Shown: one piece after another, positions 12,022 through 49,647 of the stretch
Layout: every line of letters starts with the position of its first letter
Position numbering within the stretch: position 1 is the first letter of the stretch
Source: Terriglobia bacterium
GTDB taxonomy: Bacteria; Acidobacteriota; Terriglobia; Acidiferrales; UBA7541
Direction of reading: 5' to 3'
Length of the DNA: 64,000 nucleotides
Assembly: GCA_041497955.1 (NCBI GenBank)
Contig: JBGQHO010000007.1
Span: 15,691 to 79,690 of the forward strand
The notes under the pieces: model-generated
The model's database searches: none
The model's input: only the letters and a program-made list of their open reading frames with translations
Told to the model about the DNA's origin: nothing
Program-made: the position numbers and the translations under genes

Positions 12022-12208
12022 GCCGAAGCCCCTCAAGCGTAAACGGAGCAAGAGCGGTGCCAGCCGAGCTGGCCTCGTTTTGCATGTAATTCCTTTTATT
12101 GCAATGATTTGAAAAGGCTCAGTGGCGCGGGTCTTCTGCCCTTCTGCGCGGCTTGGCTCAGTTGGAGCCGGCGGATGGGCCTGTTGCCCCAGTTTCCTTT
12201 GCCTCAGC

Positions 12209-17281: not shown

Positions 17282-18367
17282 TTAACCTCGCCAGGCCCAA
17301 ACACTCATCGCCACGATGTACAACACAGCTCCGACGCCGGCCCAGGCAAGCAGCCGCCCGGTGCGTCCATGTGGATTGCGGTCCAGAAACGGCACCATCA
17401 GCCACAACGCACCGGCCAGCCCGAACACAAGCAAGCCGACCTGTTCGCCTTCAATCCCCAACACGCGCCCGGGAATCACCTTCAGCGTCTGGAAGAGAAA
17501 CAGGAAATACCACTCCGGCCTGATGCCGGCCGGAGTCGCGGCAAACGGGTCGGCCTTGACGCCCAGGTCCCAGGGAAAGAGCGCCGCCAGCGCGGCCAGG
17601 ACGCCGAGAGCGAAATACCACCCCATCAGGTCGCGCAGCAGGAAGTTGGGAATGAAACTGTAGGAAGGCACCTTGCCGTCCGGGTGGGCGCGCTCCACCG
17701 AAGGCGGAACGCTCATGCCGAACTTCTGCACAAGAAAGAGGTGGGTCGCGACGACCACTGTGGTCAGGGCCGGGAAAACGGCCACGTGAAAGCCGAAGAA
17801 GCGTGTCAGCGTCGAGCCGGTCACGTCTTCCCCGCCGCGCAGGAATGTCAGCAGCCAAGTGCCGATCACGGGCACCGCGGCCATCATCTGCGTGCCGACC
17901 TTCGTGGCGAAGAACGCCAGCGTGTTCCAGGGCAGCAGGTACCCGCTGAATCCGAAGCCGAAAAACAGCAGTAACAGGATGCAGCCTGTCACCCACGTCA
18001 GTTCGCGCGGCTTGCGGTACGCCTTCAGGAAAAATGCGGAGAACATGTGCAGCATGGCCGTGAAGATGAGCAGATTGGCCGACCAAGCGTGGATGCCGCG
18101 CACCAGCCAGCCAAAACGCACCTTGGTCATGATGAACTGCACGCTCTCGAAGGCTTCTCCGGGCGAGGGCCGGTAGTAGAGCAGCAGCAGAATGCCGGTC
18201 ACCACCTGCACGATGAAGAGGAACAGCGTCATCCCGCCGAGGTAATACCAGAGCGTGTGCCGGTGCCGGGGCACCTGCTTGTGGGTCAGCCAGTCCAACC
18301 CACCCTTGCCGAAGCGTTCCTCGAGCCAGCCGCGGATCCGGGCAGCCGGGCTGTGCTTTGCGTCCAT
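17282..18367 (-). CDS. Cytochrome b of a Rieske/cytochrome b (bc1/b6f-type) complex, b6 and subunit-IV-like parts fused
   Basis: Start at Met46 of the ORF (MDAKHS), 2 nt after the Rieske stop. Typical cytochrome b sequence ([57 protein letters not shown]). Confidence 0.9.
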
Positions 18368-18369: not shown

Positions 18370-18834
18370 TCAAGCGCGCGACCCGCGCGAGACGACAATC
18401 TCCTTCCCGCGCACGTGAACTTGAAACTCCTCGAGCGGACGCGGTGGTGGCCCGCTGACGTTTCGCCCCTGCAGGTCGTACACGCCGTTGTGGCAGGCGC
18501 ACCAGATGTCGTGCTCGCCCGTTCGGTATTGCACCGTGCAGTTCAGATGGGTGCAGACCGCACTGAGCGCCCGATAGCTGCCGTCGGCCTGGCGGATCAG
18601 GATCCCCGGGCGGTTGCCAAAACGAAAGATTTTCGCGGAGTTCGGAGCCAGTTCATCGGCGCGCGCCGCCACCGCATCGGCATCGAGCTCTCCGGTGCGC
18701 GGGGGGAGAAGAAATTTGAGGATGGGGTACAGAACGGAAACGAGCGAAGCTGCAACCCCGGATCCGACCAGCAACTCAAGGACACGCCGGCGGGCCGCCT
18801 TGGGCGGCCCGCCGGCGTCCACATCACTGGACAC
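18370..18834 (-). CDS. Rieske [2Fe-2S] iron-sulfur subunit
   Basis: 154 aa. Arg-rich N-terminus with TM helix. Cluster-binding boxes CTHLNC and CACHNG. Confidence 0.9.
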
Positions 18835-18880: not shown

Positions 18881-19213
18881 CTACTTCTTTGCAAGGCTGC
18901 GAAGAAACGCGATGACGTTGGCGGCTTCCTCGTCGGTCAGCTTCACCGGCTTCATCTTGCCGTTGCCCTCGACGATGACCTTGTGGAGCTGTGCGTCACT
19001 CTTGGCCTGCACTTCTTTGGAGGCCAGGGGGCGCATCTCCACTTTGAACATCTTCGCGATCGCGTCTTTTCCTTCGCCACCCGGCCCATGGCACGTGGCG
19101 CACTTGCTGGCGAAAACCGCCTTGCCCTTCGCAGCGTCGCCGGCCGCCCAAACCAGCGCGGACACGGTAAGCACCACAGCCACGAGCGCCGCTATCTTCC
19201 ACCCTGCCTTCAT
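18881..19213 (-). CDS. Class I monoheme cytochrome c (c553/c6-like)
   Basis: 110 aa. Signal peptide, a single CATCHG motif, and a distal Met region (GNGKMKPV). Confidence 0.85.
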   Translation of the reverse strand: MKAGWKIAALVAVVLTVSALVWAAGDAAKGKAVFASKCATCHGPGGEGKDAIAKMFKVEMRPLASKEVQAKSDAQLHKVIVEGNGKMKPVKLTDEEAANVIAFLRSLAKK

Positions 19214-19282
19214 TCCGCCTCCTCAAAACAGGACTATGTTCCGGAGCCACGAGCAGGAAACTCTTCGCCGCTTGCGCAAGGC

Positions 19283-19735
19283 CTAGGTCCCCAGCGCCGC
19301 AAATACCAGGAAGCGCGGCTCCACTTGTACCGTGGCACGAAGCGAGTTGTTGATGAAACAGTTCTTCTCCGCCTTGGCGAGAACCTTCTGCGCCTTCTCG
19401 AGATCTTCGGCGGCAACCTCGATCTCCGGAACCACGGTAAGTGCAGTGAAACGATACCCCTCCCCGGGGACTTTTTCCAGCCGACCAAGTACCTTGCTGC
19501 GATAAGAAGTTACGGTTAGGCCGGAAATCTCGGCAATGGCAAAGAAGGTTGACATCAGGCAACTTCCCGCAGCCGCCACGAGCAGGTGTTCCGGCGTCCA
19601 CTTACCCACCTCCCCGGCGAATTCCGGCGGCGGAGCGACCTCGAGGACGGGACGCCCCTCTGCGTGAACCTGCCCGCTGCGCCGGTCACTCCACACAACG
19701 TCGACATCGTACAGGTAAGAGTTCTGCAGGCTCAC
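19283..19735 (-). CDS. OsmC/Ohr family peroxiredoxin-like protein
   Basis: 150 aa. OsmC-type pattern PEHLLVAAAGSCLMSTF ... AEKNCFI with the two conserved Cys. Confidence 0.8.
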   Translation of the reverse strand: MSLQNSYLYDVDVVWSDRRSGQVHAEGRPVLEVAPPPEFAGEVGKWTPEHLLVAAAGSCLMSTFFAIAEISGLTVTSYRSKVLGRLEKVPGEGYRFTALTVVPEIEVAAEDLEKAQKVLAKAEKNCFINNSLRATVQVEPRFLVFAALGT

Positions 19736-19935
19736 CTCTTCCTCCCAGTGGACGCGACCGTTCGACGGACCACGCGCCGCTTCTTATCCCGGTGATGGCC
19801 ATGCGGCATCACCTCTGCGCGCGCAGCTTTGACATGCGTCCAGCAATGGTGGCATTGAAAACGAGAGTCGGATTCAGCCAGCACGGCTTCCAGCGAAGAC
19901 AGCGGCTGGCCGCAGACGGTGCAGTGCGTAGTCAT
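19732..19935 (-). CDS. Small zinc-ribbon protein with basic tail (hypothetical)
   Basis: 67 aa. CTVCG...CHHC pair of CxxC knuckles and a Lys/Arg-rich C-terminus. 4-nt overlaps with both neighbours suggest real translation. Confidence 0.45.
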   Translation of the reverse strand: MTTHCTVCGQPLSSLEAVLAESDSRFQCHHCWTHVKAARAEVMPHGHHRDKKRRVVRRTVASTGRKR

Positions 19936-20336
19936 TTTCTAGCTCCCGCGGCGAAATAATCCTGCCGCTTTGATTCGAGTGCGCGGCTCACGATCCGCAT
20001 CAGTTCAGTTTCGTTTAGGGGGAGCGCCACGCAATCAAACGCTCCGCGGCGCAGAGCTTCGAGGTACAGAGGCACGTCGTCGGTGACGACCACGACCGGC
20101 AGGGCCGTCGCGAGTCCCCGAAGGCGAGTGAGTAGCTCCAGCGATGGAAGAAAGCCGCGACACAACCGGGCAACGATCAGGTCGGCTTCGCCGCTGCGGG
20201 CCGCCGCATAAAGTTCACCCGCCGAAAGCCCCTCGCGGACCTGCATTCCCCGCCGCCCCAAGCTATCGGCAAGGACTTCGAGCTCACACCCAGGCTCTCC
20301 CCAGAGAAGCACGCGTTTGCCGATTACTTCAGACAT
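19932..20336 (-). CDS. Receiver-like (pseudo-receiver) domain protein lacking the phospho-acceptor residues
   Basis: CheY-like alpha/beta periodicity. The DD pair is replaced (LLWGEPG), the phospho-acceptor Asp position reads ADLIVARL, and the conserved Lys is replaced (FDCVALP). Start taken at Met13 (ATG 20336). Confidence 0.6.
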   Translation of the reverse strand: MSEVIGKRVLLWGEPGCELEVLADSLGRRGMQVREGLSAGELYAAARSGEADLIVARLCRGFLPSLELLTRLRGLATALPVVVVTDDVPLYLEALRRGAFDCVALPLNETELMRIVSRALESKRQDYFAAGARK

Positions 20337-20613
20337 AAGCACCCCCTTGGCCGCCCCAAGGGCAGAGTCCACTTACCATTCAGCAAGTTCCGCGCCGCGC
20401 GCCGCCTTGGATGAACCCGGAGCCAAGCCATTAATTTTCTATAACTTCGTAGCCCCACGCGCTCGCAACGCCTCGGCCCAATTGGAGGGAAAGCGTTGAA
20501 ATTCGCCTCGTCCTGCGCTCCTGTGCGTGATATGCCTCAAATCAGGCAGCTTTCGAAGGACCAGTCCACCTTACAAACTACTGAAAACATTATCACTGGC
20601 TACGTCTGAGTTT

Positions 20614-22146
20614 ATGGACTTGAAAGTGCCTCCAACGGGCGCGTGGGTCGGGGGTCTGATGGTCTTGCATTTCAAGGGCTGGTCGCAGCGAATCCAAAGG
20701 ACCTTTAGCTCGCTCCGCACTGGGATCGTGCTCCTGATTACGCTGGGAGTTGTGTCCGCCGCAGGCACGTTTGTCCTGCAGCGTCCCCTGACCGACGCGG
20801 AAAGGCTCGAGCGCGCGTACGCGCCGGAAACGCTTCGCTGGCTCGATCGTCTGAGTCTGACCGACGTGTTCCACTCCTGGTGGTTTGCCCTTCTGCTGGC
20901 TGCGCTCGGCCTGAACATCATCCTGGCTTCCCTTAAACGCTTCCCCGTGGCCTGGGCCTATGTGCAGCGCCGCTACGCCCGGCCCGATGCGCACTTCCTG
21001 AAAGGGCTCACGCTGCAGCGCGAGATTCAGATCCCGGGCAAAGAGATTGGCCTCGCCGCCGCCGAAAGGGCCTTCCGGCAACTGCGGTTCAAACCGCAGG
21101 GTGTGGCTAGCCAGGACGGCATGTCTCTTTTCGCCGAGCGGAACCGCTTCGTGCGGCTGGCCGCGTATCTGGTGCACGCCAGCCTGCTGCTGATTTTCGC
21201 CGGAGCCATTGCCGATGCACTGCTGGGCTACCGCGGCTACGTCGCGCTGACTCCGAACCGGCAAACCAACTTAGTCGAACTCAGCAACGGCAAGATGAGA
21301 ACGCTGCCTTTCGTGGTTCGCTGCGATGACGCGGGCCAGGAAAACTATGCTGACGGCTCGCCGCGCCGCTGGTGGTCAAAGCTCGTGGTGCTCGACAGCG
21401 GGCGCGAAGTGCTGCGAAAGGAAATCGCGGTCAATGACCCGCTGGTCTTCCGCGGCGTGCGCTTCTACCAGTCCGGCTACGGTTCGAGCGGCGATCTCGG
21501 CGCCCTCCGGCTGCGCGTCGTGCCCAAAGCGAATCCCGCCGACACAAGAGAAATTGTCCTGCACCCGAACGAGACGCTGGCGCTCGACGCGGAGAATTCG
21601 GTCCGCGTAGCTGCTTTCTTCCCCGATTTTGTGATCCGCGGCAAACAGGTGGAGACTCGCTCGGACCAGCCGAATAACCCGGCGATCCAGCTCACGGTGG
21701 ACTCGAAGAAGTCCGGCGCTACGAAGTTGTGGCTGTTTGCGAACTTCCCGGAAGTGAACCACGCGGATGAATCGCCCTTCAGCTTCCAGCTCCGCGATCT
21801 GCAAATGGGCTGGTTCACAGGCCTGCAGGTGTCACACGAGCCGGGCCAGTGGGCCGTCTGGATTGGCGTCGTGCTGATGATGGTGGGCTTGGCTGCGGCA
21901 TTCTATTTCATCCACACGCGTGTGTGGGCGGTGCCGATCAGCGACGATCGCGGTCGGCTAGTGCTTTGGGTGGGCGCTTCGGCCAGCAAGAACCGCGAAG
22001 AATTTGAAGAGCGCTTCAGCAAGTTGGTGGCGGAAATCTTGGACGGCCTTAAGGCGCCCTACGGATCGCGCGGCACAGTGAGCCGCACATCCGGAAGCCA
22101 TCACTTCCTGGTGAACGCGGCAGCGGCGCTCAAGGGGAGGAGTTGA
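20614..22146 (+). CDS. resB: Cytochrome c biogenesis protein ResB/Ccs1 (System II)
   Basis: N-terminal TM helices ([39 protein letters not shown]), a large periplasmic domain and a C-terminal TM. Immediately followed by ccsA. Start could also be Met at 20659. Confidence 0.85.
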
Positions 22147-22151
22147 GAGCC

Positions 22152-23576
22152 ATGGCGGGAGCACTGGCAACCACCGACCTCAACCGGCGCGCCGCAGCAC
22201 AGCCGGCTACGACCGGCAATCTGTTTCTGCTCCTCGTTGGGCTGGGCACGGCGCTGCTGCTTTTCACCGCCTTTCTCTCCGCGGTCAAGACCGGGCCGCT
22301 CTTCACTGAAGACAACCTGCTCTACGCCGCGCTGATTTTTTACGCTGCCGCGGCTGCGCTCTATATCGGTTACGGCGTGACCACGGCTCTGCGCCTGGCG
22401 CGTTTTGCCACCCTGGCTACGGCGCTGGGCCTGATCGCTAATACGCTGGCCGCCGGGCATCGCTGGTATGCGGCGGGGCACCCACCGTTTTCGAGCATCT
22501 ACGAAATGCTGCTGAGCTTCGTGTGGACGCTGGCAGCGCTGACGCTGTTTGTCGAGCGGCGCTACGGCGTGCGCATCATCGGCAGCGTGACGCTGCCGCT
22601 CGCGACGCTGGGCGTGATCCTGATGCAGTTGCTGCCCTCGCCGGTGCGGCCACTGGTGCCGGCGCTGCAATCCACCTGGCTGCACGTCCACGTGACGCTG
22701 GCGATGCTGGCCTACGCCGCGTGCACGGTGAGCGTGGCGCTGGCTCTGCTCTTCCTGATCCAGGACAAAGTCCGCACGGAGACGTTCCTGGCGGCCACCT
22801 CGGCCGCGCTTGTCGCGATCTATGCCGGCATCTCCACGCGCTTCGACGCTTCCGGAGCGCTGCGCGTCGTGGCCTGGGATCCCGGCGAAGGCCGCGAAAT
22901 CTTCATCGCCGAGAAGACTCCGCTGTTCGTGATGATTCCCGGCCTGGGCTGGCTGATGTTTCTCGTGCTGGCCGCGGCCCTCGTTCCGCTGGCGTTGTGC
23001 GCTTGGGCGCAGTGGAACCGCGAAGAGCGCGGCCTGGTCTGGGCCAATCGAGCATTCTTCCCGGGCCTGCTGCTGCAAGGGCTGGCGCTCGGGGCATTCG
23101 TCATGCGCGCGCGGCAGGGATTCTACGCGTCGCGCCAGGCTGACGGCCTGTTCCCCACGAACCTGGCTGCGAGTCCTTTTCTCCTTTCCGGCCTGGCGGG
23201 AGGCCTGCTGATTTCCCTGCTGTACCTGCTACTGTTCTGGCGCCGCGAACAGCTCGAGGGCCTGCTGCCCGTCGCCGAGCGGCTGGATCGCCTCACCTAT
23301 AAGACGATCGGCATCGCGTTCCCACTGCTCACGTTGATGATTGCAGCCGGAGCCTACTGGGCCAACCGCACCTGGGGCTCCTACTGGAGCTGGGACCCGA
23401 AGGAAACCTGGGCGCTCATCACCTGGATGATCTACGCCGGCTACCTGCACATGCGCATCACGCGGGGCTGGCGGGGCCGTCGCGCGGCCTATTTCGCAAT
23501 TCTCGGCTTTGCGGTGGTGATGTTCACGTTTTTTGGCGTCACATACTTGCTGCCGGGTTTGCACGCGTACGCCTAG
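22152..23576 (+). CDS. ccsA: Cytochrome c biogenesis protein CcsA/ResC (System II heme handling)
   Basis: Polytopic membrane protein with WWD-type motif [18 protein letters not shown] and conserved His residues. Confidence 0.9.
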
Positions 23577-23805
23577 GGTGCTGTCCGCATTTCTCCGCCG
23601 CGCCGGCTTGGAGAAAGGGGTAGGAGATGGCTAGAGGGCGAGGACGAGCACCGGCCCGTAACTCAACCGACTCCTGATCCGAATCACACTTGAAATTGAA
23701 TTCCAAATTCGTACAATGGGCACGCCGGGGAAATAGCCGGGTGCCCACCCTTCCTGCTTGCGGATTTCTGCAAGCCAACTGGCCGCCCCACTTGAGGAGT
23801 GTCCT

Positions 23806-24753
23806 ATGAAGAGATCACGAAAACTGGTGCTGTTCGCGCTCGGGCTTGTCCTCGCCCTGGTGCTCTTCTGCCTGGCGCCCGCGGGCGCCGCCGATCGCGC
23901 GCAGGAAAAGAAACCCGCCGCCCCGGCCAAAGATTCGTCCCAATACATCGGAGCGGATACCTGCAAGCAGTGCCACGAGGATGTGTACAAGAAATTCGAG
24001 ACCACGCCGCATTGGAAGACGACGCTTGGAGCCATCCGCGGCATCGAGGCGCACGGCTGCGAATCGTGTCACGGTCCGGGCGCGGATCACGTCAGTGGCG
24101 GCGACAAGAGCAAAATCTTCACCTTCAAGGGAGCGACCGCGAAGCAGATCAGCGCGCGCTGCCTGGAGTGCCACGAGTACGGGGAGGAACACAGCAACTA
24201 TGCCCGCTCGGTCCACAAGATCAACGACGTGAGCTGCATCGATTGCCACTCGGTTCATAAGGCCAAGGAGTCGCAGTTCCTGCTGGCGAAAGCGCAACCT
24301 CAGCTCTGCTACTCCTGTCACCAGGACATCAGGCCCGAGTTCAATAAGCCCTTCCGCCACCGCGTGAACGAAAGCCTGGTGAAGTGCACCGATTGCCATA
24401 ACCAGCATGGCGGCTACATGACCAAACAGTTGCGAGCCACCGCCGCGCAGGACGTAGTGTGCTTCAAGTGCCACGCAGACAAGGCCGGGCCCTTTGTGTA
24501 TGAACATCATGCGGTCAAAGGTGAGGGGTGCGTGGCCTGCCACATGCCGCACGGCTCGTCGAACCCGCGCCTCCTGAAACGAGCCCAGGTCAACCTGCTC
24601 TGCCTGGAGTGCCACACGCCGACCGGCGGACCATCAGACGCTGTACCGCCGGGAACGCCCTCGTTCCACAACCAGGCGCAGAAGTATCAGGCTTGCACGA
24701 TGTGCCACGTGCAGATCCATGGGTCCAACTTGGACAGAGTCTTCTTCAAGTGA
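23806..24753 (+). CDS. Periplasmic decaheme c-type cytochrome, DmsE/MtrA/PioA/MtoA family
   Basis: 315 aa from the ATG preceded by GAGGAG. Signal peptide, then 10 CxxCH (CKQCH, CESCH, CLECH, CIDCH, CYSCH, CTDCH, CFKCH, CVACH, CLECH, CTMCH). C-terminal CH.QIHGSN ending and about 330-aa size are typical of the family. Confidence 0.85.
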   Translation: MKRSRKLVLFALGLVLALVLFCLAPAGAADRAQEKKPAAPAKDSSQYIGADTCKQCHEDVYKKFETTPHWKTTLGAIRGIEAHGCESCHGPGADHVSGGDKSKIFTFKGATAKQISARCLECHEYGEEHSNYARSVHKINDVSCIDCHSVHKAKESQFLLAKAQPQLCYSCHQDIRPEFNKPFRHRVNESLVKCTDCHNQHGGYMTKQLRATAAQDVVCFKCHADKAGPFVYEHHAVKGEGCVACHMPHGSSNPRLLKRAQVNLLCLECHTPTGGPSDAVPPGTPSFHNQAQKYQACTMCHVQIHGSNLDRVFFK

Positions 24754-24853
24754 GGGGGCGGACATGACGAGAACAGTCCAAGAAGAGATGGGCCTTCAAT
24801 CGACAGGCAGCTCCGTTCATTCGCCGCGCCCTAACGCCTCCCGGGAGTGTTCT

Positions 24854-27361
24854 ATGAAACCGACTCGCTTCGCCCTGAACTTCAGCGCTCTTGCCCTGGT
24901 TCTGCTGCTTTGCATGAGCTTCCCCGCCATGGCCCAGGAATCGGAGAAAGCGCCTGAGGGCATCAACTCTGGAAATTACAACATCAAGCAAACGGTGGAG
25001 CTTGGCGGGCGCATTATTCCAGATTCTGACTTCCGAGACACCCGCGGGACCCGCGAGTTGTTCAACACCTTCGTGAACCTGCGGAGCGGGGCACGGCTGC
25101 TGGACTACACGCTGGAGATGCGCTCGCTGAACCACGAAGGTTGGCTGTTCGACAGCCTCTACTACAGCAATTTCGGTTACGGCGGCGACCCGAACAACGT
25201 CTCGCGGCTGCGGGTGTACAAGAACAAGTGGTATAGCTTCAGCGGCACGTTCCGCCGTGACTACAGCTTCTGGGACTACAACCTGCTAGCCAACCCGTTG
25301 AACCCGAGCACCCCGGTGGCAAACGCTCCGGCGGGTTTTTCGCCGACCATATTGTTTTCGCCCCATGCGCAGGCGCTGGTGCGGCGGATGAGCGATTACA
25401 ATCTCACCTTCCTGCCGCAGTCGCGCGTGCGTCTTCGCCTGGGGTACAGCCGCAACGTCCAGGAAGGACCGTCGCTCAGCACCTTCCACGAAGGGACCGA
25501 CGTGTTGTTCTTCCAGGACTGGAAGACGACCGTCAATTCTTACCAGATTGGTGTGGACTTCAAATGGCTGCCCCGCACCAACATCAGCTACGACCAGTTC
25601 TTCCACTATTTCAAGGGAGACACTTCCTGGGTGGACCGGAGCCAGACCTTCGCGCTTTCCAACGGCGTCCCAGTGGACATCGGACTCCCCATCAACACCG
25701 CCGCGGGCCAGCCGTGTGCCCAGCCTTTCAATCCGTCCACTGCACAACCGACAGCGCCTGCGGGGACCGTCAACGCCACCTGCAACGCCTACCTGGGTTA
25801 TACGCGCCAAGCGCCTACTCGCACGAACTCTCCCACAGAGCAACTGAGTTTCCAATCCAATTACTTCAAGAATCTCGACCTTTCCGGGCGGTTTGTTTAC
25901 AGCTCGTCTGACAATACGGCGTTTGGCAACGAAGCTCTAAACGCCCTGATTACACGCACGAGAACGCTCGTGCGCAACGAAACCGGGCCGGTTTCGGGGC
26001 GTCGCGTCTCGGTTTCGGCAGACTTCGGCATCACCGTGCACGTCACCGACAAGTTGCGCGTCATGGACATGTTCCGCTTCGCCAATTTCCGACTCCCCAT
26101 GCAGTGGCTTTTTACGGAGTGCTCGTTCTTCGCTGCCGGCAATCCTGCTTCTATGCTGCTGCCCCCCACGGTATTCACTGCGACGGCTCCTCTGCCGGCT
26201 ACCTGTGCAGCCCCAGCCAATGGTGCCGCGGGAACACCGACACACAGTACGTCCTCACCCCCTGACGTTGAGTTGCGGGTCTCCAGCCGATTCTTCAAGC
26301 AGGACATCAAGAACAACCTGTTTGAGGTGGAATACGATTTCACCCGGCGCTTCGGCGCTCGGGTGGGCTACCGCTTTCGGCACCGCACGATCGCCGATGC
26401 CATCTCCGAATCAGGAACGTATGTCTTCTTTCCCAGCTTACAAAACGGGCGTACTCCCGAACCGCCCCTCAACGTGACCGAGAGCGGCGCATCGAACACT
26501 TGTCCGGTGGCCAACAACCGGTCCGATAACACGTGCCTGCTCACCGCCGAGTTGAGTGACTCAGGCAGTACGGAGATCAACGAGCACTCGGGTCTGTTCG
26601 GGATCTGGGCGCGGCCCACGGATGCGCTGCGCGTGAGCTTTGACCTCGAGCTGATGTCGGCCGATAACACATTCACGCGCGTTAGTCCGCGGCAGTTGCA
26701 GCACTACAAACTGCGCGCTAGCTACAAACCGACCCCGTGGATGGGCTTCGCAGGGACAGTGAACATCCTCGAAAACCGCAACAACGTTTTCCAGGTCAAC
26801 AACCTGCAACACAACCGCCTGTACGGGTTCAGCGCCGCCTTCGAACCCAACGAGCGAATCAGCTTCGACTTCGGCTACGACTACAACAACGTGTTCTCTA
26901 CTTCGCTCATCTGCTACCCGGTTACGCAGCCGGCGCCGTCCACCCTGCCCGCGTGCGTCGATGCGACCCTCGCGCCCATCCCCGGCTTGGTTGCGAACAC
27001 GTCCTTCTACAAGAACAAGGCGAACTTCTTTTACTTCGACGTGTCGTGGCGGCCGGTGAAGCGGCTCCGCACTTACGGCGGCTACTACCTTACCAGCACT
27101 TCCGGGAGCACCCTCATCATCGCTGGGCCGCAGGGAACGACCGGGGTGATCCCGAATCCGCCGACAGGCCCGCTGGCGTACAACTTCCACAAGCCCTACG
27201 CCGGCGTGACGTTTGACCTGTACAAGGGCCTGAGCTGGAAGGGGGAGTGGAACTATTACGGGTACAACGAGAAGGAGTCGGCCTTGCCGCTGGTGGACCC
27301 AACAGGCCCCCGGGACTTCCGCGGAAACATTGTGACGCTGGCGGTGCGCTACGCCTTCTGA
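24854..27361 (+). CDS. Large outer-membrane beta-barrel protein, MtrB/PioB-like partner of the decaheme cytochrome
   Basis: 835 aa from the ATG preceded by GGGAG. Signal peptide MKPTRFALNFSALALVLLLCMSFPAMA. Alternating hydrophobic, Tyr/Gly/Asn-rich beta-strand pattern throughout, with C-terminal ...LAVRYAF. Lies 100 nt downstream of the decaheme gene. Family assignment is by context and composition only. Confidence 0.65.
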   Translation: MKPTRFALNFSALALVLLLCMSFPAMAQESEKAPEGINSGNYNIKQTVELGGRIIPDSDFRDTRGTRELFNTFVNLRSGARLLDYTLEMRSLNHEGWLFDSLYYSNFGYGGDPNNVSRLRVYKNKWYSFSGTFRRDYSFWDYNLLANPLNPSTPVANAPAGFSPTILFSPHAQALVRRMSDYNLTFLPQSRVRLRLGYSRNVQEGPSLSTFHEGTDVLFFQDWKTTVNSYQIGVDFKWLPRTNISYDQFFHYFKGDTSWVDRSQTFALSNGVPVDIGLPINTAAGQPCAQPFNPSTAQPTAPAGTVNATCNAYLGYTRQAPTRTNSPTEQLSFQSNYFKNLDLSGRFVYSSSDNTAFGNEALNALITRTRTLVRNETGPVSGRRVSVSADFGITVHVTDKLRVMDMFRFANFRLPMQWLFTECSFFAAGNPASMLLPPTVFTATAPLPATCAAPANGAAGTPTHSTSSPPDVELRVSSRFFKQDIKNNLFEVEYDFTRRFGARVGYRFRHRTIADAISESGTYVFFPSLQNGRTPEPPLNVTESGASNTCPVANNRSDNTCLLTAELSDSGSTEINEHSGLFGIWARPTDALRVSFDLELMSADNTFTRVSPRQLQHYKLRASYKPTPWMGFAGTVNILENRNNVFQVNNLQHNRLYGFSAAFEPNERISFDFGYDYNNVFSTSLICYPVTQPAPSTLPACVDATLAPIPGLVANTSFYKNKANFFYFDVSWRPVKRLRTYGGYYLTSTSGSTLIIAGPQGTTGVIPNPPTGPLAYNFHKPYAGVTFDLYKGLSWKGEWNYYGYNEKESALPLVDPTGPRDFRGNIVTLAVRYAF

Positions 27362-27381
27362 CGCCTCACTGCCACCCGACT

Positions 27382-27412
27382 AGGGGCCGACGCGATTACT
27401 CGGTCGGCCCCT
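27382..27412. terminator. Candidate bidirectional terminator hairpin between convergent genes
   Basis: 10-bp stem AGGGGCCGAC / GTCGGCCCCT with an 11-nt loop, 20 nt after the barrel-gene stop. It overlaps the last codons of the receiver gene on the other strand. No U-tract. Confidence 0.3.
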
Positions 27413-27824
27413 GGACTTTCCCGCTAGCGCCCAACAGGTGCTGCACTTTTTCGACGAGCAGGCTGGCGTCAAAGACTGGTTTTTCGAGGTAGTCGTCCGC
27501 ACCAGAGGCTGCCAATAGGCGTTCGCGGTCGCCGGCCATGGCATGCGCAGTGGCGAGCAGAATCGGCAGCCGCCGCGGCGCGTGTTGCTTCAGCAGACGC
27601 GCTAGGTCGATGCCGTCAATCGGGTGGCCCTCCCATTCACTCTGGCCGAGCGAAACGTCCAAGATCGCGAGGTCAATCCGCCCGGCCTTCACCGCGGCCA
27701 GAATCTCGCTGACGTCTTCCGAAAGCATGCACGCAAATCCGCCCGCGCGTTCGAGCGCCAAGCGGTAGAACTTCGCGACCAGCGCATTGTCCTCCACCAC
27801 CAGAATCGTGCGCGAAGCGTTCAT
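27396..27824 (-). CDS. Stand-alone response-regulator receiver (CheY-like)
   Basis: 142 aa from Met29 (the ATG overlaps the kinase stop, ATGA). Canonical residues present: VVEDN, AILDVSL, LLATAH, DDYLEKP. Confidence 0.85.
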   Translation of the reverse strand: MNASRTILVVEDNALVAKFYRLALERAGGFACMLSEDVSEILAAVKAGRIDLAILDVSLGQSEWEGHPIDGIDLARLLKQHAPRRLPILLATAHAMAGDRERLLAASGADDYLEKPVFDASLLVEKVQHLLGASGKVQGPTE

Positions 27825-29110
27825 TGGCCAGCCCGGATTCGCGAGGTACCCTTCGAGGCGCTGGCCTTGCGCGAGGAATCTGAGCCGGCCAGCGGCAACG
27901 TGAACCACACGAGCGTCCCGCGCCCATCCGCTCCGGTCCCCAAGCTGATCTGCCCACCCATCATCTCCACCAGCTTGCGCGAAATCGCCAGGCCCAGCCC
28001 GGTGCCCTCGTAGCGGCGCCCCTTGACGTCTGTGGTGGCCTGGACGAACTTCTCAAAGACAATTACGCGTTGCTCGGCCGGGATGCCCACGCCGGTGTCT
28101 TCCACTTCCAACCGCAGGAAGCCGCTCACATTATCTACGCCGGCGCGCACGGTGACCAAGCCCTGCGCCGTGAACTTGACCGCATTGGAGAGCAGGTTCA
28201 GCAGCACTTCCCGGAAACGCACCTCGTCGGCCTCGACGAGCGGAAGCGCCGTACCGAGCGTGGCATCGCGCAGCTTCAGGTTCTTCGATGCCGCCTGCAC
28301 CGCCGCGAGCGGCAGCGTGGAGTCGAGCACGTGCCGCGGGTCCACCTCTTCAATATGCAGCGCCATTTGCCCGGCTTCGATGCGTGCGATATCCAACAGG
28401 TCGTTGACGATGCTCAGCAGGTGCTGGCCGCTCGAAAACGCGTCGCGCAGCAGCTCGTGCTCCTCGCCGCGATCCTTGCCCAATCCGTCGAGAATAAGTT
28501 TGATGAAGCCGAGGATTGAATTGAGCGGCGTGCGCAGCTCGTGGGAAATGTGCGCGACGAATTCGTCTTTCACGCGGCTGGCGTGCGCCAGCTCCTGGTT
28601 GGCGCGCTCGAGCTGCTCGTTCAACCGGCGAAGGTTCTCGAGCGTCGCGTGCATGTAGGACTCGCACATCAGGTTCAGGTCGAGGTCGAGAGCCCGGCTG
28701 AGCGAGCGCGTGTACCGCAGGCGCTCGTCGCTCGCGGGAAATTCCAGCAACAGGCATTCCGAGAGGTACGCGCGGACAACGCCCATCGCGCTGATCACGT
28801 ATTTTTGCTCGAGGCCGATGCGCACGTGGCGGTACCCGATCTGGTAGCGCTCCTCCGCGTAGGCTTCGTCGTACGCACCATTGAAAAGCCCGCGCGCCCA
28901 GTGCTGCAGCGTCTGCTTGAGCCGTGCGATCTGCGCCTCACCGCCGGTGAATACACGGAAGGCGTTGGGGTGATGCGGGATCTGCGAGTAGAAGCGCTCG
29001 GCCAGCTCAGGTAGATATTTGTCCATGCGCGGGCTGAGCTGACGCAGCAGTTGTTCGTCGGCTTCGTGGAAGCCGAGATAGCGCTTCATCTCCTGGATAA
29101 AGGTTTCCAA
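27821..29110 (-). CDS. Globin-coupled sensor histidine kinase (GcHK type)
   Basis: N-terminal sensor-globin domain (LGF.EAD...L......Y.PELAERFY...P....F; ERYQIGYRHVRIGLEQKYVISAMG) with candidate distal Tyr41 and proximal His95. Followed by HisKA (HISHELRTPLNSILGF) and HATPase_c (N, G1, G2 boxes). Confidence 0.8.
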   Translation of the reverse strand: METFIQEMKRYLGFHEADEQLLRQLSPRMDKYLPELAERFYSQIPHHPNAFRVFTGGEAQIARLKQTLQHWARGLFNGAYDEAYAEERYQIGYRHVRIGLEQKYVISAMGVVRAYLSECLLLEFPASDERLRYTRSLSRALDLDLNLMCESYMHATLENLRRLNEQLERANQELAHASRVKDEFVAHISHELRTPLNSILGFIKLILDGLGKDRGEEHELLRDAFSSGQHLLSIVNDLLDIARIEAGQMALHIEEVDPRHVLDSTLPLAAVQAASKNLKLRDATLGTALPLVEADEVRFREVLLNLLSNAVKFTAQGLVTVRAGVDNVSGFLRLEVEDTGVGIPAEQRVIVFEKFVQATTDVKGRRYEGTGLGLAISRKLVEMMGGQISLGTGADGRGTLVWFTLPLAGSDSSRKASASKGTSRIRAGQ

Positions 29111-29190: not shown

Positions 29191-30312
29191 ATGGGTGTCA
29201 GAATTTCGGCCGCAACCGGGCCCGCGGACGAACGTGCCGCGCACGCTTCTATTGCTCCCGGCTGGCGGGCGAAAGCGCTCTTGCCCGTCGGCGGCGTTCT
29301 TCTCGGGGGCCTGCTCGTCTTCATTTGGGTGACGCTTTCCTTCGAACAATCCCAACGGCATGCCGTCATCCTGGTGGCCGCCGCCGGAGCGGTCGCGATC
29401 GGGGCCGTCCTGCTGCTTGTGCTGGCCGTGCTGATCCAGCGCCCGCTCGTCGAGCTGCAAAAGAAGATTGCTCAGGTGCGCGCCGGTGATTTCTCCGTGA
29501 GCGTTAGCTTTGCCGGCCGCAGAGATGAAATCGGCGAACTGGGCCGCAACTTCAACGCTATGGTGCGCGAGTTGCGCGAGACCCGCGAGGAGCTGCAGCG
29601 CCTCCACCGCACGCAGATGTCCCGCGCCGAGCACCTGGCCACGCTTGGAGAGCTGGCCGCGGGCCTGGCGCACGAAATCCGCAACCCGCTCGCTGGCGTG
29701 GCTGGCGTGATTGACGTCATCGGTCGGGAGCTCCCTGAAGGCAGCCCCAACCGAGAGATCCTGAAAGAAGTGCAGGGCGAGGTACTGCACATCAAGCAGA
29801 TTCTCTCCGAACTGCTGGACTACGCGCGCCCCAAGCCGCCCAACTTCCAGCCGGCCGATCTGAACGCCACCGCCGAACACGCGGTCGCCCTCGCCCGCCA
29901 GCAGACGCTCTCCCGGCCCATCGAAATCAAGTTGGCGAAAGCGGAAAAGCTTCCCCCCGTCGAACACGACCCCATGCAAATCCAGCAACTCCTTTTGAAC
30001 CTCATGCTCAACGCCATTCAGGCCATCGGTGAGGCAGGGCGCATCGACGTCATCGTGGAGTCGCGCAGCGGCTTCGCGGCCATCACCGTGAGCGACACGG
30101 GCCGCGGCATTGCGCCCGAACATCTGCCGAACATCTTCCGCCCCTTCTTCACGACGAAGGGGCAAGGAACCGGGCTGGGGCTCTCGCTTGCCCGGCGAAT
30201 CGCCGAAGACCACGGCGGGCGGATCGAAGTCATCAGCCAGCTCGGCGCGGGCGCCCGGTTCACGCTGTTGTTGCCGATGGAGAAGGCGCTCTCTCCGATC
30301 GAACATCCGTAG
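29191..30312 (+). CDS. HAMP-domain sensor histidine kinase (NtrB/AtoS-like) with a minimal periplasmic loop
   Basis: Two TM helices separated by about 10 residues. HAMP (RPLVELQKKIAQVRAGDFSV...DEIGELGRNFNAMV), H-box LAAGLAHEIRNPL and HATPase_c boxes. Confidence 0.85.
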   Translation: MGVRISAATGPADERAAHASIAPGWRAKALLPVGGVLLGGLLVFIWVTLSFEQSQRHAVILVAAAGAVAIGAVLLLVLAVLIQRPLVELQKKIAQVRAGDFSVSVSFAGRRDEIGELGRNFNAMVRELRETREELQRLHRTQMSRAEHLATLGELAAGLAHEIRNPLAGVAGVIDVIGRELPEGSPNREILKEVQGEVLHIKQILSELLDYARPKPPNFQPADLNATAEHAVALARQQTLSRPIEIKLAKAEKLPPVEHDPMQIQQLLLNLMLNAIQAIGEAGRIDVIVESRSGFAAITVSDTGRGIAPEHLPNIFRPFFTTKGQGTGLGLSLARRIAEDHGGRIEVISQLGAGARFTLLLPMEKALSPIEHP

Positions 30313-30326: not shown

Positions 30327-31787
30327 ATGGCGCACGCGAAAATCCTTATCGTGGACGACGAAAAGCTGGTGCGGTGGTCCCTGCGCCAGAAGTGCCAGGA
30401 ATGGGGCTACCAGGTTGTGGAGGCCGAAGCCGGCGAGCCGGGCTTGCGCCTGGCGCAGGAGGAATCGCCCGATCTGATCCTGCTGGACGTGCGCCTGCCC
30501 GACCTGAGCGGCCTCGAGGTGCTCGAAAAGCTCAAACAATCTGGCGAAGTGCCTCCCGTGATCATGATCACCGCCGACCCTCAGCTCGACGACGCGAAAG
30601 CTGCCCTGAAGCTCGGCGCCTATGACTTTGTCGGCAAGCCGCTCGACTTCGACGAGCTCCGCGTCACCATCCAGAACGCGCTCGAGGCCACGCGCCTGCG
30701 CACCGAGGTGGAATCGCTGCGCGGTGAGGTGCGGCGCCGCACCGGCTACCACGATGTCGTGGGCGTCTCGCGGAAGATCACCGAGCTGATGAACTTCGTC
30801 CGCAAGGTCGCGGCGAGCGAAGCCAGCACCATCCTGATCCAGGGTGAAAGCGGCACGGGCAAAGACCTCATCGCCAAGGCCATCCACTATCAGAGCTCGC
30901 GGCAGGAGAAGCCCTTCGTCGCCATCAACGCCTCCGCCATTCCCGAAACGCTGATGGAAGCCGAACTCTTCGGCCACGAGAAAGGCGCGTTCACCGACGC
31001 CAAGGCCATGAAGAAAGGCCTATTTGAAGTGGCCGACGGCGGCACGCTCTTCTTGGATGAGATTGGCGAGCTCTCACCTTTTCTGCAGGCCAAGCTGCTG
31101 CGTGTGCTGGAAGACCAGATCATCCGGCGCGTCGGCGGCGTGCGCGACATCCAGGTGAACGTGCGCGTCATCGCGGCGTCGAACCGCGACCTCGAGCGCG
31201 CCGTGCGCGAGAACCAGTTTCGCCAGGATCTCTACTATCGCCTGGCCATCATTTCGATTTTCATTCCGCCCCTGCGCGAGCGCAAAGAAGACATTCTGCC
31301 GCTCGTGGACTTCTTCGTAGATCACTACAACCGTAGGTTCCGCAAGTCCATCCGGGGGGTCAGCGATGAGACGCGCCGCCTGCTGCTCAACTGCGACTGG
31401 CCCGGCAACGTGCGCGAGCTCAAGAACGCCATCGAGCGCGCGATGATTCTGGAAGAAGAAACGCTGCTGCGGCCGAACTATCTGCCCTTTGCCGTCTCGC
31501 AGCCCCACGCGAGCGTCACCGCGTTCGAGCACGCCTCGTCACCCCCCGTCGGAGGCAAGCCCCTGCCCAACGGGCGCTGGCTGCCGCCGCTCGCCATCCC
31601 GGAAGGCGGCACATCGCTCGAAGAGGTTGAGCGCGCGCTCGTGGAGCTTGCGCTGCGCCAGGCCGATGGCAACCAGACGCACGCTGCCCGCCTACTCGAT
31701 ATCAGCCGTGACGCCTTGCGCTATAAAATGAAAAAATTCGGCCTGATGCACGCCGAAGAAGAAACGACCCCTCAGATCGATTCGTAG
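30327..31787 (+). CDS. Sigma-54-dependent Fis-family response regulator (NtrC-type)
   Basis: Receiver (ILIVDDE, LILLDVRLPD), AAA+ sigma-54 interaction domain (GESGTGKDLIAKAIH, GAFTDA, ELFGHEKGAFT) and C-terminal Fis HTH (THAARLLDISRDALRYKMKKFGL). Confidence 0.9.
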   Translation: MAHAKILIVDDEKLVRWSLRQKCQEWGYQVVEAEAGEPGLRLAQEESPDLILLDVRLPDLSGLEVLEKLKQSGEVPPVIMITADPQLDDAKAALKLGAYDFVGKPLDFDELRVTIQNALEATRLRTEVESLRGEVRRRTGYHDVVGVSRKITELMNFVRKVAASEASTILIQGESGTGKDLIAKAIHYQSSRQEKPFVAINASAIPETLMEAELFGHEKGAFTDAKAMKKGLFEVADGGTLFLDEIGELSPFLQAKLLRVLEDQIIRRVGGVRDIQVNVRVIAASNRDLERAVRENQFRQDLYYRLAIISIFIPPLRERKEDILPLVDFFVDHYNRRFRKSIRGVSDETRRLLLNCDWPGNVRELKNAIERAMILEEETLLRPNYLPFAVSQPHASVTAFEHASSPPVGGKPLPNGRWLPPLAIPEGGTSLEEVERALVELALRQADGNQTHAARLLDISRDALRYKMKKFGLMHAEEETTPQIDS

Positions 31788-32431: not shown

Positions 32432-33058
32432 CTAGCTCTTCTGTTTCCGCGCCTTCTCGATCAAGTCGAGCACGCGCTGCTTTTCCGGATACTGCGGGTT
32501 CGTCTTCAGCAGCTTTTCCCAGGTGGCGATGGCCGCGCCGTAGTCCTTGAGCCCTTCTGACTGCACGATGGCCAGATTGAAGAGCGTGTTCGGATGCGTG
32601 GGTTCGGTGGCAAGGGATTTCTCGTACTCGGCCACCGCCTTCTGCGGGAAGCCGGAATACCAGAAGGCCGTGCCGAGGTCCGTGCGCACGTTCACCTGGT
32701 TCGGCCGCACTGCGAGAGCGCGCGTGTAATACTCGATCGCTTCGGGATAAATCTGGTGATCGTAGTAGAGGTTGCCGAGCTGCGTCAGCGTTTCGAAATT
32801 CTTGGGGTCGGCTTTGAGCGCGGCGAGCAGCGGGGCCGCCAGCGGCTGCAGCGACTCGGCCGACGGCATCGAGCTTGCGGCGCTCGGCGCAGCTCCGCCG
32901 GAGCCGCTCGAAGCGAGCGAGGCGGACATCGGCGCGATGGGCGCTGAGCCATGCAGGATGTAGCCCGCCACCAGGCCGACCGTCAGGCAGACCAGAGCCA
33001 GCAGATAAGCCTCACGATTGGTCCACGTGCCGGCGGGGCGGCTGCTTTCGTTCGCCAT
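32432..33058 (-). CDS. Membrane-anchored TPR-repeat protein
   Basis: Start at ATG 33058, 1 nt after the hemA stop. One TM helix (AYLLALVCLTVGLVAGYIL), a Ser/Ala-rich linker, then three or more TPR units (LGNLYYDHQIYPEAIEYYTRAL, LGTAFWYSGFPQKAVAEYEKSL, ...). The longer 395-aa ORF is an artefactual extension into hemA. Confidence 0.8.
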   Translation of the reverse strand: MANESSRPAGTWTNREAYLLALVCLTVGLVAGYILHGSAPIAPMSASLASSGSGGAAPSAASSMPSAESLQPLAAPLLAALKADPKNFETLTQLGNLYYDHQIYPEAIEYYTRALAVRPNQVNVRTDLGTAFWYSGFPQKAVAEYEKSLATEPTHPNTLFNLAIVQSEGLKDYGAAIATWEKLLKTNPQYPEKQRVLDLIEKARKQKS

Positions 33059-33059
33059 A

Positions 33060-34478: not shown

Positions 34479-34871
34479 AACTCCCTCCATTGTTAAGAGT
34501 TCCGGGCGGGGCACGCGCGGAAGACCCCTGTCGGGAAAGCCCGTTTGGGCGATATTCCCCGACCCCGAGGGGCATATAACGCTGCAAAACGCATCACGAT
34601 GCGAAGGTCGCCAAGCCAATTGCTTCGCTGCCGAAAATGGACCGGTTGCTGAGCGAGATCTCCGCCGTCAAGTCTTGAGCGAGGAGCCGCAAGGGCCGCG
34701 AAAAGGCTCACGGCTTGGGGAAAATGGCTCAGCGACGCCGTTCCAGCCCGGCCCAGCGGACAGAGTGGCCGCCTAAGGTGCGGCGGTACAACGGTTTGCG
34801 GCAGGGGCGTGATTTTGAGCTTTGGCAAGGGTCGTGCCCCTAAGGAGGGGTGGTTAGCATTTTGAGAGGGT

Positions 34872-37319: not shown

Positions 37320-37559
37320 TGTCTGCCTCCCACCTGAATCAAGCACTTGCCCTGCCAAGAAAGCATGTTCCTTGCGTTGCGCCAACCCGTGTTTTGACGG
37401 GAGCTTACGGACACATGGAGGGCTTCCGCCCGACAGCGATTAATGCTGTGTCTGAGGCGGCTGGCGCAGGTTCGTGCGCGATGTGGCGCAAACAGCCCCG
37501 GCGCGCTTCTCTACATCTCCGCAAGTCCCTCATTTTTTGTGAGTTGCGCCGCTTCCGGC

Positions 37560-37575
37560 TGGCATCGAAGCTGCT
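37560..37575 (+). promoter_or_regulatory. Candidate sigma-54 (-24/-12) promoter upstream of the PFOR gene
   Basis: TGGCAT-N5-CTGCT, with GG and GC separated by exactly 10 nt (consensus TGGCAC-N5-TTGCW). The -12 element is 27 nt upstream of the GTG start at 37602. Confidence 0.3.
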
Positions 37576-37601
37576 CCCCTGTCACTGAAGAGGAGAAGCC
37601 C

Positions 37602-41168: not shown

Positions 41169-41191
41169 GCGCCGCAGGTGGGGAGGGCATC

Positions 41192-42112: not shown

Positions 42113-42127
42113 TCGAGAGGTGAAACC

Positions 42128-42403
42128 ATGCCCTCACAGGATCGCGGTCGGGTAACTATCGATCCCGATGAATGCAAGGGATGCGGGCTTTGTCTGGACG
42201 CCTGCCCGCCGAAGTGCCTGGCCTTCGCCAAGGACTTGAGCCCATACGGCGTCCACCCGGTGCTGTACCTGGGCGAAGGCTGCACGGGCTGCGGCATCTG
42301 CTTCTACGCCTGCCCCGAACCGGGCGCGATCACGGTCTATCGCGCGGCTCCCCCGCCCAAGCTCGCCAACCAGCCGGCCGCGCAAGAGACTCCCCGTGCG
42401 TGA
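42128..42403 (+). CDS. 2x[4Fe-4S] ferredoxin, delta subunit of 2-oxoacid:ferredoxin oxidoreductase
   Basis: 91 aa with [12 protein letters not shown] and [12 protein letters not shown]. Confidence 0.85.
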
Positions 42404-43460: not shown

Positions 43461-43478
43461 CGCCGGAGGAGAATCGTC

Positions 43479-47663: not shown

Positions 47664-49368
<1,705 letters not shown>

Positions 49369-49372
<4 letters not shown>

Positions 49373-49611: not shown

Positions 49612-49647
49612 TTGGTTTCTCCGCTTGATGCTACAGCGTCGCCCAGT

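Follow-up and report, generated by a model that had tools for sequence, protein, structure and literature searches.

Porin–cytochrome conduits built with an MtrA-type decaheme cytochrome are well known. Acidobacterial decahemes resembling MtrA have been on record since 2013 (PMC3669403), a list of 'candidate mtrA/mtrB homologues' followed in 2018 (PMC5900883), and Candidatus (Ca.) Acidoferrum was named after its homologues of Fe-cycling genes (PMC7980381). Here we describe a two-gene locus at positions 23806–27361 of a 64,000-nucleotide (nt) stretch of DNA from a Terriglobia bacterium of the Acidiferrales (assembly GCA_041497955.1, contig JBGQHO010000007.1, positions 15,691–79,690 of the forward strand; hereafter the window, whose own numbering we use). 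An earlier interpretation made from the letters alone (the sequence-only reading) had taken the two products, a decaheme cytochrome and a β-barrel protein, for an MtrAB/PioAB/MtoAB-type conduit without an extracellular MtrC/OmcA partner. Our analysis indicates that the pair is very probably a trans-outer-membrane conduit resembling MtrAB, with a barrel that current MtrB/PioB models do not recognize and with conserved neighbours that include predicted inner-membrane quinol-oxidizing cytochromes. Counts of locus context refer to the best 80 of 516 genomes with barrel relatives, searched by tblastn with the window proteins; individual loci carry L numbers.

With MtrAB of Shewanella (6R2Q), the pair shares a full-length MtrA homologue with ten aligned hemes and the HGSN tail, the order cytochrome then barrel, and a barrel whose best fold match is MtrB, collinear by profile. 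It differs from Shewanella MtrCAB in having no MtrC/OmcA and in a barrel that fails TIGR03509 and PF11854. Moreover, the barrel is ~138 amino acids (aa) longer than Shewanella MtrB, has long Cys-paired loops and lacks an N-terminal CxxC, and its partners are ImcH-like, CbcL-like and Rieske/cytochrome b modules rather than CymA.

MtoAB–MtoD–CymA of Sideroxydans and PioAB of Rhodopseudomonas likewise combine a decaheme with a barrel and have no extracellular cytochrome. The likeness to MtoAB–MtoD–CymA, judged from layout, extends to a class I monoheme cytochrome near the pair and, in 43–44 related loci, to a NapC/NirT tetraheme in the same order; in the window, the monoheme gene stands in an inverted operon and there is no small tetraheme. 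MtoB and PioB, compared by description only, are reported members of the MtrB/PioB family, whose models give no match to the barrel described here. The window differs further from MtoAB/PioAB in its ImcH-like, CbcL-like and Rieske/b modules in an anaerobic regulatory context and in having no HiPIP (PioC). At 835 aa, the barrel is nearer in length to PioB/MtoB than to MtrB.

GSU2203 (OmcK) and GSU2204 of Geobacter sulfurreducens, both up-regulated with hematite and magnetite (PMC4070692), resemble the pair in that the decaheme reaches 232 bits on the GSU2203 model and the barrels match the C-terminal part of GSU2204, although both scores are far under the cutoffs (232 versus 325 and 23 versus 350). 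Members of the GSU2204 family contain CXXCH and often selenocysteine, whereas CxxCH is absent from the window barrel and from 189 of 190 relatives. From the same phylum, Acidobacteriia 'Group 5' MtrCAB (Baker et al. 2022, PMC8805035) also joins an MtrA-type decaheme to an outer-membrane barrel; it has a canonical MtrC and a detectable MtrB, is reported from five genomes (Bryobacterales or unclassified) and has no inner-membrane quinol oxidoreductase nearby. By contrast, the system described here has no MtrC, its barrel is undetectable by MtrB models, it extends to 516 species genomes and it is usually linked to such modules.

The Pcc and Ext clusters of Geobacter (OmaB–OmbB–OmcB and ExtHIJKL–MNOPQS) follow the same logic of a porin with a periplasmic multiheme cytochrome. 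The Ext cluster likewise sets an outer-membrane conduit beside a Rieske/b-type complex, and its periplasmic cytochrome is a pentaheme. In the window, the cytochrome b described below scores 210 bits on the ExtP-type model NF040969 (cutoff 290) and the nonaheme gives a faint ExtM match, both below cutoff. Unlike the locus studied here, the Geobacter clusters include extracellular cytochromes, and the Pcc periplasmic cytochromes are reported as octaheme (OmaB) and not homologous to MtrA (PMC6344600).

A full-length MtrA homologue precedes the barrel gene

The anatomy given by the sequence-only reading was reproduced: a 315-aa decaheme is followed, after exactly 100 nt, by an 835-aa protein with a signal peptide that ends in RYAF. 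The decaheme gene occupies 23806–24753 (+), its ATG at 23806 lying inside the open reading frame (ORF) 23758–24753 (+), and the barrel gene occupies 24854–27361 (+), its ATG at 24854 lying inside the ORF 24719–27361 (+). Near-identical GGAG-type sites precede both start codons (GAGGAGTGTCCTATG and GGGAGTGTTCTATG). The same two products, of 315 and 835 aa, were called independently in three public assemblies. The barrel had also been described as ~130 aa longer than Shewanella MtrB; with 835 against 695–697 aa, the excess is ~138 aa.

The proposed membership of the decaheme in the DmsE/MtrA family was borne out. On TIGR03508 it scores 264.5 bits (E = 9.7e-79, cutoff 192.2) over model positions 1–257 of 258, and it aligns with MtrA of Shewanella baltica (6r2q_A) over residues 18–308 with all ten hemes in register (E = 4.9e-41, 34% identity). 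The protein has exactly ten CxxCH motifs and the C-terminus ...CTMCHVQIHGSNLDRVFFK; its signal peptide is cleaved between AGA and AD, and there is no good lipobox, so that we predict a periplasmic or intra-barrel c-type cytochrome. The runner-up model was that of the GSU2203 (OmcK) family, NF041028, at 232.2 bits (cutoff 325). Homologues number 3,397; those with a name carry the label 'DmsE family decaheme c-type cytochrome' and stem from Acidobacteriia, Terriglobales and Acidiferrales metagenome-assembled genomes. Ten hemes and the IHGSN tail are kept in 118 of the 119 homologues examined.

The barrel is predicted to share the MtrB fold

The 835-aa product starts with a cleavable signal peptide (MKPTRFALNFSALALVLLLCMSFPAMA, cut before QE), contains no CxxCH and ends in RYAF. 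Its assignment to the MtrB/PioB family, made in the sequence-only reading, did not hold: neither TIGR03509 (curated cutoff 240.05 bits) nor PF11854 (23 bits) gave a match even at E ≤ 10, and ten distant relatives gave none at E ≤ 0.1. As a positive control, S. baltica MtrB scored 767.5 bits on TIGR03509 and 807.6 bits on PF11854; this sequence was taken from 6r2q_B, which S. oneidensis MtrB matched at 1,402 bits. Searches of PDB sequences with the single sequence (phmmer) and with a 38-sequence profile (hmmsearch) returned nothing at E ≤ 10, and domain-model scans gave no plug or TonB-box match. The sole family model to respond was NF041027 (GSU2204 family CXXCH-containing (seleno)protein; 23.2 bits, E = 2.7e-5, residues 611–690). 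Six of the 10 distant relatives show this match at identical model positions, with E down to 1.9e-8 (7 of 11 members when the window barrel is included). As the MtrB/PioB family is modelled at present, the barrel lies outside it.

Comparison of profiles pointed to a more distant relationship. A narrow barrel alignment (effective number of sequences, Neff, 2.4) run with hhalign against a single MtrB sequence gave a probability of 1.8%, a value superseded by broader profiles: 72 full-length barrel representatives (Neff 4.6) on one side and 29 MtrB sequences on the other. The MtrB homologue search returned Shewanella sequences only (≥60% identity), and the MtrB profile accordingly covers Shewanella alone. 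With these two profiles, the local alignment reached 82.8% (score 55.7) over 487 collinear columns, pairing barrel residues 170–835 with MtrB residues 174–695, and the global alignment reached 94.4% over 633 columns. The reversed MtrB profile scored 15.7 (0.1%), and eight block-shuffled MtrB profiles scored 22–32, with probabilities of at most 3.9% (local) and 14% (global). Circular permutation was dropped as a null, as it only mapped the signal to the C-terminal ~225 residues. These residues carry most of the MtrB signal and form the region that also touches the GSU2204 model, to which the link is indirect.

Predicted structure agreed with the profiles. An AlphaFold2 model built with 38 homologues was all-β, with a mean predicted local distance difference test (pLDDT) score of 75.4 and a predicted template modelling (pTM) score of 0.62. 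By DSSP, it contained an estimated ~26–28 long strands, with long and short connections alternating in the manner of outer-membrane barrels. Foldseek placed MtrB (6r2q_B) first among PDB structures (E = 3.8e-15; template modelling score, TM, 0.54 by query and 0.68 by target), at ~10% identity in the structural alignment. The next class, 22-strand TonB-dependent receptors, gave TM values of 0.25–0.36 by query and 0.24–0.43 by target. The fold thus appears to be a very large barrel of the 26-strand type, wide enough for a decaheme, with both strand number and lumen size estimated from the model. The sequence-only reading had named, as the outcome that would speak against a conduit, a barrel that does not score with MtrB/PioB models and has a lumen too narrow for a decaheme. 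The first part was indeed found; for the second, the ~26–28 predicted strands and the TM of 0.68 suggest the opposite. We conclude from profiles and model together that the barrel is probably homologous to MtrB, though very remotely, and resembles it in fold.

Members of the wider family have a median length of 810 aa, end in Phe in 176 of 190 cases and typically contain eight Cys, with the pairs 288/310, 423/451, 550/561 and 687/701 in predicted long loops. A CxxC within the first 120 aa occurs in just 2 of 190 barrels. Shewanella MtrB has SCKGC near its N-terminus, a feature of that protein and not of the entire MtrB/PioB family.

Pairing and distribution of the barrel family

An indexed search returned more than 2,265 barrel homologues. 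Every named one is a 'hypothetical protein' and nearly all are without a Pfam domain; a few carry the generic OMP_b-brl domain and nothing else. Exhaustive searching of 50%-identity representatives gave 1,188 clusters at E ≤ 1e-3 and 252 at E ≤ 1e-30. With each species represented by a single genome, profile scanning located relatives in 516 genomes; a scan of genome contigs with the single barrel sequence gave 32 pattern matches, none confirmed, and relatives were found with the profile only. The best 80 genomes are Acidobacteriota (Terriglobia, Ca. Acidiferrales/Acidoferrum, Acidipila and Solibacter) except for two bins labelled otherwise, and in the genomes examined the family is, by these sequence searches, essentially acidobacterial.

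The decaheme gene lies immediately upstream of the barrel gene in 80 of 80 loci. Pairing is retained even in the distant loci L084 and L085 (32% identity), whose core consists of a divergent CRP/FNR regulator, decaheme, barrel, two class I cytochromes and a NapC/NirT-domain protein of 490–526 aa. This invariant adjacency suggests that the decaheme is located inside the outer-membrane barrel. The original proposal of a trans-outer-membrane conduit is supported in part: the family of the decaheme, MtrB as the best fold and the pairing speak for it, whereas the barrel falls outside the MtrB/PioB models. The further claim that no MtrC/OmcA-like partner is present was confirmed and extended: among neighbours within 5 kb clustered across the 80 loci, we found no MtrC/OmcA-like multiheme lipoprotein in any. 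A DmsEF-like system with a non-heme extracellular enzyme was considered and rejected, as no DmsAB-like family is conserved within 5 kb across the loci. Beyond the partners described below, clustering of these neighbours gave no further conserved family.

In the searchable literature, we did not find the partner barrel described as a distinct unannotated family invisible to TIGR03509/PF11854, nor any account of how large this family is or of how systematically it is associated with ImcH-like, CbcL-like and Rieske/b modules. We tentatively suggest that these barrels represent a third, unannotated lineage of decaheme-associated barrels beside MtrB/PioB and the Geobacter Pcc porins and that, with their modules, they form a complete, oxygen-regulated chain of extracellular respiration in hundreds of Terriglobia species, including a route to extracellular acceptors that may conserve energy through coupling to a Q-cycle. 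Surveys with hidden Markov models need a recognizable MtrB, MtoB or PioB and would systematically miss such barrels. Acidobacteriota (Terriglobia) are among the most abundant soil bacteria, and their role in iron and humic redox cycling has so far been argued mostly from matches to MtrA-type decahemes. If a third lineage exists, the share of this dominant soil phylum in such cycling would be under-counted. Confirmation of the function would call for a new barrel model in pipelines that annotate extracellular electron transfer and would alter estimates of soil Fe(III) and humic reduction potential; the association with Rieske/b makes Q-cycle coupling of extracellular electron transfer a testable question.

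The pair neighbours a predicted respiratory module

The original picture of a two-gene conduit captured the pairing but missed a larger unit with predicted inner-membrane quinol-oxidizing cytochromes and a Rieske/cytochrome b complex. Taken literally, the earlier claim that the pair has no flanking multiheme lipoprotein gene is correct; three more multiheme genes nevertheless lie 6.5–11.6 kb upstream on the minus strand, with 9 hemes (16013–17281), 5+1 hemes (14499–15944) and 13 hemes (12209–14509). All three products are membrane-anchored and without a lipobox, and in most related genomes their genes are contiguous with the pair.

In related loci, homologues of the partner genes recur within 10 kb of the pair at graded frequencies: a class I monoheme cytochrome c in 52 of 80 loci, mostly directly after the barrel; a Rieske protein in 35, usually directly downstream of the barrel; cytochrome b and the nonaheme cytochrome in 34 each; a NapC/NirT-type pentaheme (ImcH-like) in 19; and a 13-heme–cytochrome b fusion in 17. 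The usual order on one strand is decaheme, barrel, c, Rieske, b and nonaheme, sometimes with the pentaheme and the 13-heme fusion. In the window, these partners form one minus-strand operon running from 19213 down to 12209, 4.6 kb upstream of the pair, indicating that the window carries a rearranged version of a conserved supercluster. Among the 65 loci whose downstream flank extends to 9 kb or more, 58 carry one or more inner-membrane quinol modules within 10 kb. A ~208-aa tetraheme with two transmembrane segments, of the NapC/NrfH/CymA type (PF03264, 41 bits), follows the barrel and monoheme c in 43–44 of 80 loci (for example, L009 12811–13431 and L024 12449–13075); the window has no such gene.

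The operon begins with a 110-aa class I monoheme cytochrome c (18881–19213 (−)) with one CxxCH and an N-terminal hydrophobic segment, a candidate periplasmic or membrane-tethered carrier. Its PDB matches are c6, c-552 and CcoP-type domains; a specifically MtoD-like identity was rejected, as it matches generic class I cytochromes. There follow a Rieske [2Fe-2S] subunit (18370–18834 (−); PF00355 50.6 bits, with sub-threshold PetC-type matches) and a cytochrome b resembling b6 plus subunit IV, with ~8 transmembrane segments (17282–18367 (−); PF00033 177.8 bits, PF00032 42.6 bits). The next product is a nonaheme cytochrome c (16013–17281 (−)) with a signal peptide, nine CxxCH motifs and a C-terminal anchor (transmembrane residues 391–409). 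It would take the place of cytochrome c1 in the Rieske/b complex.

Two further products are candidate quinol oxidases. The first (14499–15944 (−), 481 aa) has transmembrane-like segments within residues 28–74, an atypical CX3CH (CGLTCH) at 140, five CX2CH motifs and a NapC/NirT match (PF03264, 39.4 bits). The ImcH signature comprises about three N-terminal transmembrane helices, an adjacent atypical CX3CH and 5–9 CX2CH motifs (Zhong and Shi, PMC6295460), and the gene fits this signature in its motif architecture. The second (12209–14509 (−)) joins a domain with thirteen CxxCH motifs to an FdnI/HydC-type cytochrome b with 4–5 C-terminal transmembrane segments (PF01292 45.6 bits, cutoff 30.1; TIGR01583 49.2 bits, under its cutoff). 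By domain layout, we assign it to the CbcL/MtoC/MtrH architecture. A previous survey listed 19 ImcH homologues in Acidobacteria and found no mtrAB/mtoAB adjacent to imcH (PMC6295460); the linkage described here is new relative to that survey.

Direction of electron transfer and competing explanations

On balance, we favour an MtrAB-like two-component conduit that forms the outer end of a larger conserved respiratory module and exports electrons. Menaquinol would be oxidized at the inner membrane by the ImcH-like and/or CbcL-like cytochrome and/or the Rieske/cytochrome b–nonaheme complex, and electrons would then pass via the periplasmic nonaheme and class I monoheme cytochromes to the decaheme. 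The decaheme, exported to the periplasm and inserted in the barrel lumen, would span the outer membrane with its ten-heme chain. As there is no MtrC-like extracellular cytochrome, the outermost heme or hemes would meet the substrate directly, and under oxygen limitation electrons would exit to Fe(III), Mn(IV) or humic acceptors.

That the direction cannot be proved from sequence, as the sequence-only reading held, still stands; the context nevertheless leans towards export. We consider the main physiological direction somewhat likelier to be outward because of the ImcH-like partner, the low-oxygen regulators and anaerobic metabolic context described below, and the published association of these lineages with Fe(III)-reduction gene pools (PMC7980381; PMC3669403). 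To date, the ImcH family has been reported from Fe(III) reducers only (PMC6295460).

Several observations weigh against this account. The barrel escapes both MtrB models and all PDB sequence searches, and its homology to MtrB rests on one moderate hhalign result with a narrow, Shewanella-only profile and on a model of medium confidence (pLDDT 75). Insertion of the cytochrome and the outer-membrane location of the barrel are predicted from sequence, modelled fold and synteny, and the promoter and regulator links are positional. The ImcH assignment, on which the outward lean partly depends, comes from motif architecture. In addition, the two-component layout with a monoheme c and a tetraheme (43–44 loci) copies mtoA–mtoB–mtoD–cymA of the Fe(II) oxidizer Sideroxydans, and CbcL/MtoC-type proteins and Rieske/b complexes also serve inward or reverse electron flow.

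The main rival, which we consider unlikely, is that the pair takes up electrons in the manner of MtoAB/PioAB. Oxidation of extracellular Fe(II), reduced humics or minerals would occur at the cell surface, and electrons would run from the decaheme to class I c and a terminal oxidase, in part uphill via Rieske/b or a NapC/CbcL-type protein to quinones. An architecture with no MtrC/OmcA-like partner, as in all 80 loci, is tied to Fe(II) oxidation (PMC6344600), and the order decaheme, barrel, monoheme c and NapC/NirT tetraheme mirrors mtoA–mtoB–mtoD–cymA (PMC10654088). CbcL/MtoC/MtrH-type proteins are found in oxidizers and reducers alike (PMC6295460), and parts of the high-potential type (Rieske, class I c) are typical of iron oxidizers with reverse flow. 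By contrast, proteins of the ImcH type are reported from reducers only (PMC6295460), and the FNR-type and globin-sensor regulators, HemN and PFOR indicate a low-oxygen heterotrophic metabolism. The annotated parts of the window contain no HiPIP, cupredoxin, Cyc2 or carbon-fixation genes, and Fe(III) reduction is reported for cultured relatives, Acidobacterium capsulatum among them (PMC7980381, PMC6295460).

It is less probable still that the conduit is bidirectional and potential-sensing, its direction set by whichever module is engaged (ImcH-like, CbcL-like, Rieske/b or small NapC-like). Up to three or four different quinol/quinone modules are tied to one conduit, and Mtr-type conduits have been reported to run both ways (PMC6295460), but this explanation overlaps with both export and uptake, and the sequence data are silent on it.

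Finally, the 835-aa protein is very improbable as an unrelated large porin or transporter beside a periplasmic decaheme carrier or reductase that forms no wire: although it matches neither MtrB/PioB models nor any PDB sequence, and Foldseek also lists many TonB-dependent receptors at E < 1e-7, it adjoins the decaheme in 80 of 80 loci, down to 32% identity, has MtrB as its top fold match at roughly double the TM of other barrels, gives a collinear hhalign signal to MtrB well above nulls, has no plug or TonB-box domain match, and is paired with a full-length homologue of MtrA, a protein known solely as barrel-inserted.

Regulatory and metabolic surroundings

For the conduit favoured here, regulation appears to be tied to low oxygen. 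A response regulator (27396–27824 (−); PF00072) and a protoglobin-domain histidine kinase (27821–29110 (−); PF11563 126 bits, HisKA/HATPase) are convergent with the barrel gene. They are kept beside it in three assemblies and no further than 10 kb away in the closest relatives (L046 and L049), a retention which suggests a possible role in controlling the conduit by sensing O2, NO or CO. A HAMP histidine kinase (29191–30312 (+)) and an NtrC-type sigma-54 activator (30327–31787 (+)) are kept near the cluster in L003, L046 and L049, the NtrC-type protein at 83–87% identity, and may likewise act on the conduit. A regulator of the CRP/FNR family that carries an N-terminal Cys cluster (CMNCPHREDRLFC) lies ~330 nt upstream of the decaheme in 16 of 80 loci (for example, L048 7866–8642 (+)). 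In the two most distant loci examined, its gene is divergent (L084, 3626–4504 (−), and L085, 3693–4445 (−)); the window has no CRP/FNR gene beside the pair.

Upstream of the decaheme start, at 89 nt, we identified a sigma-70-like promoter candidate (TTGAAA-16-TACAAT, 23690–23717 (+), 10 of 12 positions). It is the single match in 19200–27700, where 1.5 are expected; with the count at chance, its position alone is suggestive. Between this site and the start of the decaheme gene, a small palindrome (GCTTGCGGA/TCTGCAAGC, 23756–23775 (+)) may serve as an operator. The predicted fold of the decaheme mRNA 5′ untranslated region was not significant (z = −0.5). Terminator counts were at chance, and a weak hairpin at 27425–27443 falls inside the convergent response-regulator gene.

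Directly upstream of the pair lie genes for System II cytochrome c maturation, of the ResB/CcsB type (20527–22146 (+)) and the CcsA type (22143–23576 (+)), with scores of 294 bits on PF05140 and 252.9 bits on TIGR03144 (cutoff 187.6). As ResB/CcsA genes adjoin the pair in only 1 of 80 loci (L049), they represent supportive context rather than core. The gene for HemN, the oxygen-independent coproporphyrinogen III oxidase (10558–12051 (−); TIGR00538 568.5 bits, cutoff 325), stands immediately downstream of the multiheme operon and is directly preceded by a perfect sigma-54 −24/−12 consensus (TGGCACCGCTCTTGCT, 12047–12062 (−)). This is the sole perfect site; a sigma-54 scan of the window gave 28 matches against 35 expected, showing no enrichment.

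Further genes concern heme and anaerobic metabolism. HemA (glutamyl-tRNA reductase) and a TPR protein with a sub-threshold CcmH/CycH match are encoded at 32432–34619 (−), and pyruvate:ferredoxin oxidoreductase (PFOR), a tandem universal stress protein and a two-subunit 2-oxoacid:ferredoxin oxidoreductase at 37443–44912 (+). By gene content, these regions would give the cytochrome cluster a setting of heme supply and anaerobic metabolism. Taken with the regulators, HemN and System II, HemA and PFOR fit a predicted expression at low oxygen and a heavy demand for heme.

Three other regions of the window were annotated. Between the Rieske/b operon and ResB, 19283–20372 (−) encodes an OsmC-like peroxiredoxin, a small Cys-rich ORF and a degenerate receiver-domain protein (PF00072 26.8 bits, below cutoff). 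A CarboxypepD_reg domain fused to an OmpL-like BBP2 porin (61504–63321 (−); PF07642, 105 bits) is unrelated to the conduit barrel. Finally, 47660–52097 (−) and 52149–57087 (−) contain a run of AMP-binding, fatty-acyl-CoA ligase-like genes and two 'male sterility'-type fatty acyl reductases, one of them HAD-fused; with a polysaccharide pyruvyl transferase-like gene in the same region, they may belong to a lipid or wax alcohol pathway.

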